A DNA stretch of 50,031 bases from Pseudomonas phage HHBS10_2, in the sequence record PQ287653.1. The stretch is one strand, 5' to 3'. A program made the position numbers and the translations under genes. Within the stretch, counting starts at the first letter, position 1; every line of letters begins with the position of its first letter. The notes below the pieces were generated by a model. That model worked only from the letters and a program-made list of their open reading frames with translations. It made no database searches and was not told where the DNA came from. Below are positions 19,791 to 23,256 of this stretch, one piece after another.

Positions 19791-21479
19791 ACTGCACGCT
19801 TCGCACTCTCCTTTACTTGCCTGCACCCCTGCTTTGGTTCGCATGTAGTAGAGGGACTTGATTTGCGGATTGAGCAGAGCTTCTTTGTGGATTTGAGCAA
19901 TGTAAGCCTCACTTTCGTTAGCGTCAAAGAATAAGTTAATAGATTGAGCTTGACAGATGTAAGGTTGTCTAGCTGCTGCTAGTCTAACCAGAGCGGCTTG
20001 ATCCACCTCATAAGCCGTCTTGAATACAGCTTTCTCTTTCGGACTAAGCCAATCAAGATGTTGTACGCTACCTTCAGTTTCAGTTAGTTCTTTAACGAGT
20101 TCGTCAGTCCAACCAACACGTTTCTTTGCCAGGTTAAGAAAGACAGGATTGACTCTGTAAATTTCCCCTGCGGAGGTTGGTTGATTGTACAGATTTGCAA
20201 CCACCGGCTCAATACCTTGGGAGACGCCCCCACAGATAAGAGCAGAAGATGTGTTGGGGGCAATAGCAAGTAGATGAGTGTTCCTAACACCATAACCTTT
20301 ACACCACTCAGGCTCGCCCCAAGCTTTTGCCATCCACTTTGTAGCACGAGTGGCCTCCTCATGTAGATGTTGGAAGATTTCTAGGTTGGTCATATGAGCC
20401 TCGAAAGACTCAAGTGGGATCATCTTAGCTTGCAGATAGGTGTGGAAACCAAGGGCTCCAAGCCCAAGAGCCCGGCTTGCCTCAGTGAATCTAACACTCT
20501 TTTCAAAACCCTTTTGTCCCTTGGCGAGTCGGATAAACTCTTGTGCAACGCAGTCAAGAAACACTGTAGACACGAACACTGCGTCTGTGTTTTTCCATTC
20601 ATCATACTTCTCCAGATTCATAGACGAGAGCACACAAGTGAAGGTGTGGTCTTCGTCACTAAACAATGTAATCTCAGTGCAAAGGTTAGAGGCTTTAACT
20701 TCAAGACCTCTGTCCTTATACATCTGAGGGTTCATGGCGTTAACTGTATCAGGCTTAAAGAAATAGCCCTTACCAGTGATAGCCTTAACATACATTGCTC
20801 TCTGGAAGCGTTGTACAGCGTCTACATCACCTGCTTCTAGACGATCAATAAACGCTTGGCTTAGGTTCCAGCCAATGTTAAGATCGTCTGGGAAGTTCTT
20901 TAGATAGTCTACGATTTCGTAGAAGTCTCCGTGGTCAATAGGCAGATACCCTGCCCATGCTCCTCTCCGAGAAGTTCCTTGTGCAACATCTCGCATGTCT
21001 TGGACAAAATGCTTAAAGATTGGCAGAGTACCTGAAGCTTTTCCTCCGGTACTGATGATGCTTCCACGAGGTCTGATATCGCCGAGATAGCCCGACGTGC
21101 CGAAGCCATTCTTTGTAAGCATAGCCGTTTCGTGGTAGGCTGAGTAGAATCCATCAATGCTGTCCTCAATATATTGACCAGAGCAGCTTACTGGCATACC
21201 TTTGATTGTGCCCATGTTACTAAGAACAGGAGTAGAGGCAGCAAGCCAGCCGCGCCAAAGAACATCAAAAAACTTAGCGGCCCACTTGTCAGGGTCGTCA
21301 GTATGTTGTGCAGCAGTTTTAGCGATACGCTCGTATGTGTCTTTAAGTCCTCTCGCCTCCCACAAATATTTTTCTTTAAAGAGTTGCCATCCACCAGTAG
21401 TCATCCATTCAGGTACAAGACCTTGTGCTTGAAGTTCTTTCCTCTCTTGGGAAAGTTTCTCGTAAATTGTACTCACCAA
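19785..21479 (-). CDS. nrdA: ribonucleoside-diphosphate reductase large subunit (class I alpha, no ATP cone)
   Basis: PVLSNMGT, NLCTEITL active-site Cys region, C-terminal CEACSG redox cysteines. Confidence 0.9.
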   Translation of the reverse strand: MVSTIYEKLSQERKELQAQGLVPEWMTTGGWQLFKEKYLWEARGLKDTYERIAKTAAQHTDDPDKWAAKFFDVLWRGWLAASTPVLSNMGTIKGMPVSCSGQYIEDSIDGFYSAYHETAMLTKNGFGTSGYLGDIRPRGSIISTGGKASGTLPIFKHFVQDMRDVAQGTSRRGAWAGYLPIDHGDFYEIVDYLKNFPDDLNIGWNLSQAFIDRLEAGDVDAVQRFQRAMYVKAITGKGYFFKPDTVNAMNPQMYKDRGLEVKASNLCTEITLFSDEDHTFTCVLSSMNLEKYDEWKNTDAVFVSTVFLDCVAQEFIRLAKGQKGFEKSVRFTEASRALGLGALGFHTYLQAKMIPLESFEAHMTNLEIFQHLHEEATRATKWMAKAWGEPEWCKGYGVRNTHLLAIAPNTSSALICGGVSQGIEPVVANLYNQPTSAGEIYRVNPVFLNLAKKRVGWTDELVKELTETEGSVQHLDWLSPKEKAVFKTAYEVDQAALVRLAAARQPYICQAQSINLFFDANESEAYIAQIHKEALLNPQIKSLYYMRTKAGVQASKGECEACSG

Positions 21480-22177
21480 CTAAATCCTTTCTCATCCCAG
21501 GAACGATTGTAACTGTTACCAATGCCGCTAAAGAAGTCATGGAACATGACGCCATTGATGCCATCATAGAACCACTCTGCAACAATATTGTTGCTCACTT
21601 CAAAGACAGGATCAATACCAAGCTGAGCAAGACAGATGTTGACACGAGACTTAACGAAGGTCTTCATTTGTTCAGCAGTGATGCCTTCCATTTCACCCTT
21701 CTCAAAAATCATATCAACAATACGGAACTCATGCTCTGCAATGGTACGAGCACAGTTTGCTAAGTCATACTCAAGATTGGGGTTGATGTAACCACCTTCG
21801 GATTTAATCTCTTGCTTGAGCGTGTTATAAAGCCAAGCCCCGCCTTCACAATGTAGGTTCTCATCACGTACAGAGAAGTTAATACCCCTCACTACGTTCA
21901 TAAGCTTGTTCTTACCTTTAGCTTGGAAGTGCTTCAGGAAGGCAAAGCTAGAATAGAGAACCGCACCCTCTACCATAGAGAATGCCCCTAGGCTGTACAG
22001 CGGGTCATCTTTCTCAACCAGACTGTCAACAAACTCCATACGTTCTTTTAGAACGGGGTCATTAACATAAGCAAGATAAAACTCGTCCGTATTGAGCATA
22101 AGCGCTTCATTAATCTTATTGTAGACATATTGTTCATGTCCTGGACATTTCTGCCAGGCTCCTATGTGTTGCCACAT
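21473..22177 (-). CDS. nrdB: ribonucleotide reductase small subunit, C-terminal part (downstream piece / 3' exon)
   Basis: FSMVEGAVLYSSFAFL and SVRDENLHCE diiron motifs; ATG 3 nt after the endonuclease stop codon. Confidence 0.85.
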   Translation of the reverse strand: MWQHIGAWQKCPGHEQYVYNKINEALMLNTDEFYLAYVNDPVLKERMEFVDSLVEKDDPLYSLGAFSMVEGAVLYSSFAFLKHFQAKGKNKLMNVVRGINFSVRDENLHCEGGAWLYNTLKQEIKSEGGYINPNLEYDLANCARTIAEHEFRIVDMIFEKGEMEGITAEQMKTFVKSRVNICLAQLGIDPVFEVSNNIVAEWFYDGINGVMFHDFFSGIGNSYNRSWDEKGFSW

Positions 22178-22180
22178 AGA

Positions 22181-22849
22181 TCAGACTATCTCACCACCCG
22201 ATTTCTCGGGGCTAACCGTACGAATTTCAAGTTTGTATCGGAAGCTTTCTTGCATATATGGCTCGATACCATGCATGAATTTGTCGAAATCTTTCATCCG
22301 CAAACGCAAAGTCAGGTATTTACCACCAGTTTTAACGACGTTCCATTCCAGGTCTAACTTTTCTTTAAGAGCCTTCTTCAGTAGAAGCTGGTCTCCGTAG
22401 GAGAGTCTGCACAAGTTAAGTGTCACTGTTCGAGCAACAGAGCCGTTCGAATTCATACTCTTGCCCAAACAACCGTCGCACATATACAAAATAGCTAACG
22501 CTTCAAAGTCTAACATCTTCAACGCATGTGGATCAATGGATTTGTAGGAGTCTACATAAATCCGGTCACGCAGTTTGTTGAAGTATGGATGTACAGGAGT
22601 GTACAACTTAAGCAGAGATTTCCTTGGTGCCTCTCTCTCATCTACCACAACCTTGTAAGACGTGATATTGGAGATGATGGAACCCACATAATCTACGAAG
22701 TCTTTGTGGTCTTCAGTTTGGGAAAAGGAGAACAGACAGTTGCCTGCACCACGGTTCCTATAGACAGACCCGTCACCCATAGTGATGAAGGAAATGAGCT
22801 TAATTAGTTCTTTTTTGTCTTTAATTTTCATAGTCGTTACACATCTCAT
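22181..22849 (-). mobile_element. LAGLIDADG homing endonuclease (222 aa) interrupting nrdB
   Basis: FITMGDGSVY and LYMCDGCLG motifs; own start and stop codons. Confidence 0.85.
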
Positions 22850-22932
22850 AGCGAGTTAGCACGGGATTAGGTCAGTAACCCTTCCCCGTTTTTAGGTTAG
22901 TTATTCAATTTCAATCTCTTGAAAAGGCCGCC

Positions 22933-23256
22933 CTATTTTGACGGAGCGTGAACATTAAGTTCAAAGAACCCAAAAGTAGCTGCCATCCTCTCAATATCAG
23001 GACGAGGGAAAGTTTTGAGGACGCGACCAAGCCAATAGTCACGACCAGCAACCAGTTCGTACAAAGTAAAGAGACGAAGTGTTGTAATGACTCCATGTGC
23101 CTCCGCCTCTGTCATGTTTACACGAATGTCTTGAATATCTTTTTCTACGTTAATCTCGTCATCAGTCCAGAAGATAGATGACTGTACCTTAGCAAACTGA
23201 ATGGCTTCAGGATAGTCAAAGGTATAACTATACTTAGGCTCAAGCAGTCTGGGCAT
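22933..23256 (-). CDS. nrdB: ribonucleotide reductase small subunit, N-terminal part (upstream piece / 5' exon)
   Basis: FWTDDEINVEKD...ELNVHAPSK ends with a stop inside the conserved E-x-x-H...S-Y iron-ligand motif. Confidence 0.85.
   Translation of the reverse strand: MPRLLEPKYSYTFDYPEAIQFAKVQSSIFWTDDEINVEKDIQDIRVNMTEAEAHGVITTLRLFTLYELVAGRDYWLGRVLKTFPRPDIERMAATFGFFELNVHAPSK

Follow-up and report, generated by a model that had tools for sequence, protein, structure and literature searches.

The window analysed here, a stretch of 50,031 nucleotides (nt) from Pseudomonas phage HHBS10_2 (PQ287653.1), carries a copy of nrdB, the gene for the small subunit of ribonucleotide reductase (RNR), that is interrupted by an open reading frame (ORF) for a LAGLIDADG_2 homing endonuclease. 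On the strength of sequence comparisons, we consider it very likely that the interruption is a group I intron of the type found in the bacteriophage T4 td gene, that it lies within the Phe106 codon of nrdB, and that it carries a homing endonuclease that looks functional. This reading is supported directly by the boundaries of the insert, the ORF that is restored when it is removed, the covarying RNA structure, an intact endonuclease gene on which purifying selection acts, and an occurrence among related phages that is patchy and mosaic. A first-pass annotation of the same DNA had described two nrdB pieces separated by the endonuclease ORF, and had proposed either a group I intron whose core overlaps that ORF or a split protein reassembled from two polypeptides. 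The two pieces and the intervening ORF are all present, on the minus strand, and the details given for them are as we find them: the N-terminal piece ends in ...ELNVHAPSK, 83 nt (22850..22932) separate its stop codon from the endonuclease ATG, and 3 nt separate the endonuclease stop codon from the ATG of the C-terminal piece, which is in the same frame. The intron proposal is strongly supported by the boundaries of the insert, a match to the Rfam group I model, td-like core motifs, and the covariation of helices P2 to P9.1 that are described below.

To define the insert, the window was aligned with the uninterrupted nrdB genes of the related phages O4 and PA11, a comparison that the first-pass annotation had recommended. 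The DNA alignment contains a single gap of 815 nt (22126..22940), with one codon split across the junction, and the boundaries of the gap are unique, as shifting either one by a single base spoils the match to O4 and PA11. Group I introns obey two boundary rules, namely a U preceding the intron and a G as its last base; here an exonic U precedes the insert, whose last base is a G (...AAUAUG^UCUAC, where the caret marks the junction), and the introns of all four relatives at the same site and of the Pakpunavirus phage SPA01 also end in G. Joining exon 1 to exon 2 yields 969 nt that encode an NrdB of 322 amino acids, 321 of which are identical to the O4 protein, and the two Pfam Ribonuc_red_sm matches, one in each piece, abut at profile positions 96 and 98. 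The interrupted codon, Phe106, is split U^UC at nt 316 of the gene and immediately precedes the codon for the tyrosine that aligns with the radical tyrosine. Phe106 is encoded in neither piece, as the N- and C-terminal pieces read Ser and Val at this position, respectively, and the first 18 residues of the C-terminal piece, in which the FSMVEG motif begins 65 residues from the start, are read from intron sequence (P9, P9.1 and the 3' tail). The break therefore does fall within the metal-ligand and radical-tyrosine motif, as had been noted, but the E-x-x-H spacing assigned to that motif does not hold, since the sequence ELNVHAPFY has the form E-x-x-x-H...Y. Similarly, the counts of 83 and 3 nt of non-ORF sequence are accurate but understate the intron, which reaches 8 nt into the ORF of the N-terminal piece and 52 nt into that of the C-terminal piece.

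The spacing of this motif is a property of the NrdB clade. Its members have E-x-x-x-H (FFELNVHAPFY; window 22941-22970, residues ~96-107), as compared to E-x-x-H in the closest solved NrdB structures (8dq4 and 9dws), and the extra residue between the Glu and the His that align with metal ligands is conserved in all five intron-bearing hosts (including contigs L125-L129). The neighbouring structure matches, 6cwo and 6sf4, are proteins that we take to be class Id enzymes.

The predicted ribozyme elements run along the insert in the order P1, P2, P3; P4-P5-P4', P6, J6/7; P7; an ORF-closing stem; and a GUAC linker, P3', P8, J8/7, P7', followed by P9, P9.1 and a tail, and all helices are intact in the window's own sequence. 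The Rfam group I model (RF00028, Intron_gpI; gathering score 50 bits), a scan with which had also been recommended, matches positions 22162..22950 over the full length of the model at 29.9 bits (E=4.4e-5), a weak but significant score that is below the gathering score. P1 pairings were read by eye from the sequences; the CCGU/GCGG pairing is present in L125-L129 and in relatives located in RNR large-subunit genes as well, while the guide in SPA01 is GCAC, matching its exon sequence GUGU. By analogy with other group I introns, P7 is taken to hold the guanosine-binding site. The ORF-closing stem occupies the place of P7.2 in the T4 td intron, so that the ORF lies in a peripheral loop between P7 and P3'; ORFs within group I introns are usually found in peripheral loops. 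With respect to subgroup IA2, the core sequence is td-like, but only one stem is present between P7 and P3', and this stem, which bears the ORF, resembles P7.2 together with the GAAAC linker. Both ends of the ORF run into the ribozyme core, which explains why so little non-ORF sequence seemed to be available for a ribozyme. Specifically, the last 20 endonuclease codons make up P3', P8, J8/7 and the 3' strand of P7, and the UGA stop codon (22181-22183) directly follows the latter strand (UAGUC).

The proposed structure was evaluated by comparing it across related introns. Relatives were drawn from viral contigs that contain the J6/7-P7 14-mer, from contigs that encode homologues of the endonuclease, and from phage SPA01. 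These sources yielded 24 introns whose ORF is located at the same place, and 22 of them entered an alignment from which the ORF was deleted. A first MAFFT alignment misplaced P3', P8, P5 and the outer P9 pairs, where hairpin lengths vary; it was re-cut at P3' to give the alignment used here (A2), and anchor-based counts were made alongside. Across helices P3, P4, P5, P6, P7, P8, P9 and P9.1 in A2, 94.8% of cells form pairs, as compared to 72% when the 3' partners are shuffled and 32-39% when the partners are slid by 1-3 columns. Changes on both sides occur in 30 of the 40 pairs tested, and the covariation score of 0.643 (0.200 in shuffles) was reached in none of 500 shuffles. P3 spans the entire ORF, as its 3' strand is located ~680 nt downstream of its 5' strand. 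P3 is a perfect 6-base-pair (bp) helix in 21/24 introns, built from 20 different strand sequences, whereas pairing the 5' strand of one intron with the 3' strand of another gives 6/6 pairs in only 18 of 544 combinations. In A2, 99.2% of P3 cells pair and five of its six pairs show double changes, and P3' always falls between a conserved CG(N)AC linker and P8, abutting both.

The remaining helices behave similarly. In P2, 80% of cells pair (49% when shuffled), with a score of 0.73 versus 0.20 among the 24 relatives. P4 is 99.2% paired and includes a G-C to U-A exchange, P5 is 77% paired with four pairs changed on both sides, and P6 is fully paired (100%), with changes on both sides at all three of its pairs. 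P8, P9 and P9.1 occur in 24/24 introns; their strands take 20-22 different sequences, and their loop types are conserved: the P8 hairpin is at its place in every relative (20 different strands), P9 is 97% paired with both sides changed in 6/6 tested pairs and has GNRA loops, and P9.1 is 95% paired with both sides changed in 5/5 pairs. The ORF-closing stem has at least three canonical pairs in 22/24 introns and extends to 9 bp, with pair types that include GAA/UUC, GGA/UCC, GAG/CUC, GGG/CCC, GAU/AUC and AGA/UCU. P7, by contrast, is invariant, in part because relatives were retrieved through the P7 14-mer, and is thus uninformative. The exact 14-mer (GTGTAACGACTATG) matches more than 120 viral contigs (L005-L124 among them), and most of these have the J8/7 motif GA(G/U)AUAGUC further downstream, at a distance of 19-100 nt or of 590-1170 nt. 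Most of the matches proved to be genuine td-like introns, which, both ORF-bearing and ORF-less, form a very large family in uncultured phages.

The endonuclease ORF has two candidate starts. The longest form, of 222 amino acids, begins at an in-frame ATG at 22849, in the 3' strand of P6, whereas the likely start is an AUG embedded in P7 (GACUAUG) that gives 216 amino acids; this AUG-in-P7 arrangement is common to 21/24 introns and is also the start chosen in the annotation of phage FBPa8. Inspection of the sequence before both endonuclease ATGs and before the ATG of the C-terminal nrdB piece revealed no convincing Shine-Dalgarno sequence. The protein matches Pfam PF03161 at 89 bits (cut-off 25) over profile positions 9-168 of 168, and the PHROG family phrog_11023, 'homing endonuclease with LAGLIDADG motif' (E=9e-15). 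Like a monomeric enzyme of this family, it contains two LAGLIDADG motifs (LISFITMGDGS and LAILYMCDGCLG), both with an acidic residue at their end, that are conserved in all homologues at the same site. The closest solved structure by sequence is I-SceI, a weak match (E=0.006) that places the Asp of the second motif opposite the second Asp in the I-SceI MDDG sequence, a residue that we take to be the catalytic D145. In all, 311 homologues of the endonuclease were retrieved; those at the same site are 65-81% identical and contain no frameshifts or stops. Proportions of nonsynonymous differences (pN) are 0.14-0.28, as compared to 0.65-0.93 for synonymous differences (pS), and dN/dS is ~0.1 for the sole pair in which synonymous sites are unsaturated; as pN is far below pS, the endonuclease protein is under purifying selection.

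The intron has the patchy distribution of a mobile element. The region of the window that contains it is 94-98% identical to phages of the genus Paundecimvirus (Zobellviridae), among them PA11, O4, K4, IME180 and TC6. Besides the window, nrdB is interrupted in FBPa8 alone among 12 distinct matching Paundecimvirus-like phages (14 records), and the other 11 have an uninterrupted 969-nt gene. The FBPa8 intron, which was sequenced independently, is 100% identical over 815 nt, while exon 2 of FBPa8 differs from the window at ~82 of 600 positions (~13%), starting 40 nt from the junction. An identical intron beside a divergent exon is the pattern expected from recent homing with a short co-conversion tract, and, as judged from these sequences, it indicates that such an event probably took place. 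In FBPa8 the nrdB pieces are annotated as 'hypothetical protein'. Four metagenomic phages have introns of 811-815 nt at this codon (..VHAP^FY..); their NrdB proteins share only 48-59% identity with that of the window and with each other, L125 (85%) excepted. Three of the loci contain a complete gene, and there an ORF of 318-330 amino acids is regained by splicing at the homologous junctions; the contig of the fourth, L125, stops inside exon 2. RNR large-subunit genes are interrupted by introns and endonucleases of the same kind that are less closely related (44-52% amino acid identity), in some cases at the active-site codon ..NP^C... Among these, SPA01 (NC_073602, locus L004 2875-3739) has an 865-nt intron in nrdA at ..NLC^QE.. 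that follows a U, ends in G, and carries a LAGLIDADG_2 ORF whose product has 44% amino acid identity to the window endonuclease; all three pieces are annotated as 'hypothetical protein'. Of the 124 matching records, just the two SPA01 records cover 100% of the query, and one intron-less genome, PAK_P1, was aligned. Blastn searches of phage genomes with the intron returned FBPa8 and a 140-nt stretch of SPA01 and nothing else, and tblastn searches of phage genomes with the endonuclease added only weak matches in crAss-like phages.

Several additional features of the surrounding sequence were observed in these comparisons. Within window positions 21500-22085, where exon 2 of FBPa8 is ~13% divergent, O4 and PA11 differ from the window at just ~10-15 positions, and the 5' part of the window nrdA gene (20600-21480) is nearly identical to FBPa8, so that a sharp recombination mosaic between the window and FBPa8 surrounds the intron. 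The FBPa8 nrdA product is annotated as 327 amino acids, and the 3' half of the window gene (19800-20600) is unalignable with it (~50% mismatches); nrdA in FBPa8 seems to be truncated or rearranged beside the intron-bearing nrdB. Two contigs in IMG/VR, L132 and L134, have two introns of the family in one RNR large-subunit gene (~700-1000 and ~1350-2300), one ORF-less, with 108 nt between P7 and J8/7, and the other with a LAGLIDADG ORF at NP^C.

Some observations weigh against a functional group I intron. The Rfam score of 29.9 bits falls short of the gathering score of 50, at which the whole window yields no intron match and a tRNA alone, and the Rfam alignment puts P3' and P8 at wrong places inside the ORF. 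This shortfall is uninformative and reflects the 600-nt ORF insertion, as the proven ORF-containing introns of T4 td and nrdB are also below the gathering score in the same scan, whereas ORF-less introns in viral contigs that have the same J6/7-P7 14-mer (GUGUAACGACUAUG) and the J8/7 motif score 53-100 bits. P1 is short, with 4 exon base pairs plus one; a search for P10 revealed no convincing helix, just a possible 3-bp CUA/UAG pairing that was not counted, and a search of the intron for P7.1 found none. The position of P3' in A2 was chosen by a complementarity search, which biases the P3 counts towards structure, a concern that is answered by the cross-pairing control (18/544). Approximately 70 nt of essential core (P7, P3', P8 and J8/7) are also coding, so that translation of the endonuclease would compete with folding. 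The nrdA gene of FBPa8 seems to be truncated, so that this phage, the sole sequenced relative to carry the intron, offers no assurance of a maintained RNR function. Finally, we infer splicing itself from sequence, as we do its occurrence in vivo, the activity of the endonuclease and its target site.

These weaknesses would be accommodated by a decayed intron that no longer splices efficiently, in which case nrdB would effectively be a pseudogene, perhaps made dispensable by the host RNR. The low Rfam score and the short P1 fit such a scenario, as do a J8/7 that carries a G where most relatives have a U (GAGAUAGUC versus GAUAUAGUC) and the seeming tolerance of FBPa8 for a truncated nrdA. However, we regard decay as improbable: every helix is intact in the window sequence, the G variant of J8/7 also occurs in other family members, ORF-less ones included, both exons are open and 321/322 identical to O4, and full-length restorable nrdB ORFs are kept in hosts just 48-59% identical to each other. 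A very improbable reading is the split protein, in which the gene is left unspliced and the 107- and 234-amino acid products reassemble into an active small subunit, in the manner of NrdA and mobE in phage Aeh1. There is a precedent for it in that phage (PMC3045599, PMC7344957), both pieces are open, and the C-terminal one possesses an ATG, at 22175-22177, that shares the frame of exon 2. Against this, the split Phe106 codon leaves neither piece with that residue, and the C-terminal piece takes its 18 extra residues from parts of a covarying ribozyme (P9, P9.1 and the 3' tail) and its ATG from the P9 helix. This ATG is without a counterpart in L125, where the corresponding frame, examined by eye, contains in-frame stops and lacks any ATG ahead of the exon; in L126 and L127 the downstream genes are called from other starts. 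A split gene would moreover have no use for a complete, conserved group I core, and this second proposal of the first-pass annotation is not supported.

A sequencing or assembly artefact, which the same annotation had named as what would overturn its reading, is scarcely credible, and so is an intein. The FBPa8 genome, an independent GenBank entry, contains the insert with 100% identity, an identical endonuclease protein occurs in Logan assemblies, and homologous inserts are located at the same codon in four metagenomic contigs, which together rule out an artefact. An intein is contradicted by stop codons in the host frame (a UAG lies two codons past the junction) and by the length of the insert, as 815 is not a multiple of 3. 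A group II intron was dismissed, since a group I core is present.

If the insert is a spliced group I intron, the following sequence of events can be proposed. The gene would be transcribed through the intron, and the ribozyme would fold into P1, whose U·G pair marks the 5' splice site, P2, the P3-P8 and P4-P6 domains, P7 with its guanosine site, and P9 together with P9.1. Two-step, guanosine-initiated self-excision would then join ...CACGCUCCGU to UCUACAAU..., producing the junction ...CACGCTCCGT^TCTACAATAAG... in the spliced RNA, and the spliced mRNA would be translated into the normal 322-amino acid NrdB. The endonuclease presumably cleaves intron-less nrdB alleles such as those of O4 and PA11 (...TTTGAACTTAATGTTCACGCTCCGTTCTACAATAAGATTAATGAAGC...); these match the window exactly over ~60 nt to each side of the insertion site and so would be targets. 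Homing would then follow, as repair templated by the intron-bearing allele would introduce the intron into the cut gene. It is also conceivable, although on balance unlikely, that the element belongs to a separate lineage of phage LAGLIDADG introns, as yet undescribed, that is specialised for RNR active-site codons (..HAP^FY.. in nrdB, ..NP^C.. in the large subunit and ..NLC^Q.. in nrdA). On that reading, two features could set it apart from other homing introns. First, with the strands of P7 marking both limits of the ORF, translation and ribozyme folding would be mutually exclusive, and the endonuclease protein might also serve as a maturase in place of the missing P7.1. Second, the P1 pairing CCGU/GCGG shared by the nrdB and NPC sites, together with the changed guide in SPA01, would provide a natural series for studying how group I introns colonise new sites, in which reverse splicing into CCGU could be compared with retargeting of the endonuclease.

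The coordinates of all features are collected in the table below. In the downstream direction on the minus strand, the locus comprises a thioredoxin-like ORF, the 107-amino acid ORF, the LAGLIDADG_2 ORF, the 234-amino acid ORF and nrdA.

Table. Features of the interrupted nrdB locus and of the predicted intron, in window coordinates (aa, amino acids).
Feature	Position	Strand	Description
N-terminal nrdB ORF	22933..23256	-	107 aa, ends ...FFELNVHAPSK, stop; Pfam Ribonuc_red_sm profile positions 5-96
C-terminal nrdB ORF	21473..22177	-	234 aa; Pfam Ribonuc_red_sm profile positions 98-279
LAGLIDADG_2 ORF, longest form	22181..22849	-	222 aa; Pfam PF03161
LAGLIDADG_2 endonuclease ORF, likely start	22181..22831	-	216 aa from AUG embedded in P7 (GACUAUG)
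nrdB exon 1	22941..23256	-	codons 1-105 and first base (T) of Phe106; ends ...CAC GCU CCG U; O4/PA11 alignment, Pfam
Predicted group I intron, 815 nt, T4-td-like (IA2-like)	22126..22940	-	begins CAAAAUAGGGCGG, ends ...GAACAAUAUG; last base G
nrdB exon 2	21473..22125	-	starts UC UAC AAU AAG (..F^Y N K), runs to stop
In-frame UAG	22933..22935	-	two codons past 5' splice site, in P1 loop; ends ORF of N-terminal piece (...HAPSK, stop)
P1	22928..22944	-	exon CCGU (22941-22944) and intron C1 pair with guide GGCGG (22928-22932, intron nt 9-13); U·G at splice site
P2	22909..22924	-	hairpin UUUCAA-GAGA-UUGAAA; covariation support
P3, 5' strand	22895..22900	-	CUAACC; pairs with GGUUAG 22212-22217 across ORF
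P4 around P5 hairpin	22861..22889	-	ACGGGG/UCCCGU; covariation; motif much like T4 td
P6	22845..22855	-	hairpin CUC-GCUAU-GAG; covariation
J6/7 and P7, 5' strand	22831..22842	-	GUGUAAC-GACUA; GACUA pairs with UAGUC 22184-22188
ORF-closing stem, 5' strand	22821..22829	-	GAA..UUAA; pairs with 22222-22230; overlaps G of AUG and codons 2-4
ORF-closing stem, 3' strand	22222..22230	-	UUGAAAUUC, then linker GUAC; counts of pairing in relatives
P3, 3' strand	22212..22217	-	GGUUAG; inside 3' end of endonuclease ORF
P8	22197..22210	-	hairpin CCCGA-GAAA-UCGGG; inside ORF, encodes ..SPEKSG..
J8/7 and P7, 3' strand	22184..22196	-	UGGUGAGA and UAGUC; encode endonuclease C-terminus ..GGEIV
P9	22162..22179	-	CUAUGUG-GCAA-CACAUAG; ATG of C-terminal piece (22175-22177) inside its 5' strand
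P9.1	22140..22158	-	CCUGG-CAGAAAUGU-CCAGG; covariation; conserved CAGAAAUGA-type loop
3' tail	22126..22139	-	ACAUGAACAAUAUG; ends in terminal G

Elsewhere in the window, a tRNA gene (42674-42753, minus strand; RF00005, 44.5 bits) is the sole Rfam match above the gathering score. At the RNR locus itself, PA11 and TC6 have a 561-nt DNA methyltransferase gene between nrdB and nrdA (L003 1670-2230 in PA11) that is absent from the window and from O4; this gene is another variable insertion at the locus.

For annotation, the consequence is that genomes with the insert should carry a joined nrdB coding sequence together with an intron and an endonuclease. Related introns are present in the RNR genes of two unrelated groups of P. 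aeruginosa phages, Paundecimvirus and Pakpunavirus. These phages are candidates for therapy, and an endonuclease directed against an identical site in intron-less relatives (O4, PA11 and others) could conceivably bias co-infections within a cocktail, in the way described for PhiPA3 and PhiKZ. In that system an intron-encoded HNH nickase of PhiPA3, located in a jumbo-phage RNA polymerase gene, interferes with PhiKZ (PMC11620839); the likeness is that the intron endonuclease of a Pseudomonas phage targets a gene in an essential pathway of intron-less relatives.

Among known introns, the closest comparison is with T4 td (group IA2), the motifs of which were compared with the window intron by eye. 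Both introns interrupt a phage gene of nucleotide metabolism and both carry a homing endonuclease. The core of the window intron contains the td-like motifs ACGGGGAA..AAUCCCGUGCUAA, UAACGACUAU and GAGAUA(U)AGUCUG. Segment by segment, J3/4-P4 is UCUAAACGGGGAA in td and CCUAAAAACGGGGAA in the window intron, P4'-J6 is AAUCCCGUGCUAA in both, J6/7-P7 is UAACGACUAUC in td and UAACGACUAUG in the window intron, and J8/7-P7' is GAGAUAUAGUCUG in td (J8/7 GAGAUAUAGUC) and GAGAUAGUCUG in the window intron. P9 is CUGCAUG-GUGA-CAUGCAG in td and CUAUGUG-GCAA-CACAUAG in the window intron, both with GNRA loops, and the 3' ends are GAACAUAAUG and GAACAAUAUG, respectively. The linker CG(N)AC that precedes P3' in the window family resembles CUC-GAAAC of td. 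However, td has both P7.1 and P7.2, where the window intron has a single hairpin, and the two ORFs differ in family and position: that of td encodes the GIY-YIG enzyme I-TevI and is located at intron nt 132-870, upstream of J6/7, in what we take to be the P6a loop, whereas that of the window encodes a LAGLIDADG_2 protein, lies between P7 and P3', and overlaps P7, P3', P8 and J8/7.

The T4 nrdB intron (I-TevIII) interrupts the same gene family and has a similar group I core, but it is inserted in a Cys codon (..FYVSFA-C^TFNF, near nt 664) rather than in Phe106 (..VHAP-F^YNK, nt 316), and its endonuclease is an HNH enzyme that is annotated as defective in T4, as compared to the LAGLIDADG_2 protein of the window. 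In the Bacillus cereus group, the nrdF intron IVS6 with I-BthII is a group IA intron of an RNR small-subunit gene, with a patchy distribution and evidence of horizontal transfer; it is located at ~nt 579 and encodes a GIY-YIG enzyme, whereas the window intron is at nt 316 of nrdB and encodes a LAGLIDADG_2 enzyme (PMC2248736). Phages of Bacillus and Staphylococcus have further introns in RNR genes. The nrdB insertion site described here, in the codon preceding the conserved Tyr, is distinct from the T4 nrdB and B. cereus nrdF sites with which it was compared. Aeh1 shares with the window an RNR gene interrupted by a homing endonuclease gene. Its nrdA is split by mobE, a free-standing endonuclease gene that has no ribozyme, and the protein is reassembled from its two polypeptides (PMC3045599, PMC7344957); the window adds a covarying ribozyme that flanks and overlaps the ORF, and a split codon.

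The endonuclease has one close counterpart by family. A 2025 survey of the Bastillevirinae reported one LAGLIDADG_2 case, assigned to phrog_11023, in a group I intron of a Nitunavirus DNA polymerase gene (PMC11878797); it belongs to the same PHROG as the window endonuclease, while the host gene, the phage group and the bacterial phylum differ. According to a 2014 review, phage group I introns mostly encode GIY-YIG, HNH, PD-(D/E)xK or EDxHD enzymes (PMC3984707), which makes LAGLIDADG the less usual passenger. The window element belongs to a well-known class, that of td-like group I introns, here with the less usual passenger, and adds nothing on how such elements work; the points of most interest are an ORF bounded by the two strands of P7 and the spread of the family among different RNR active-site codons.

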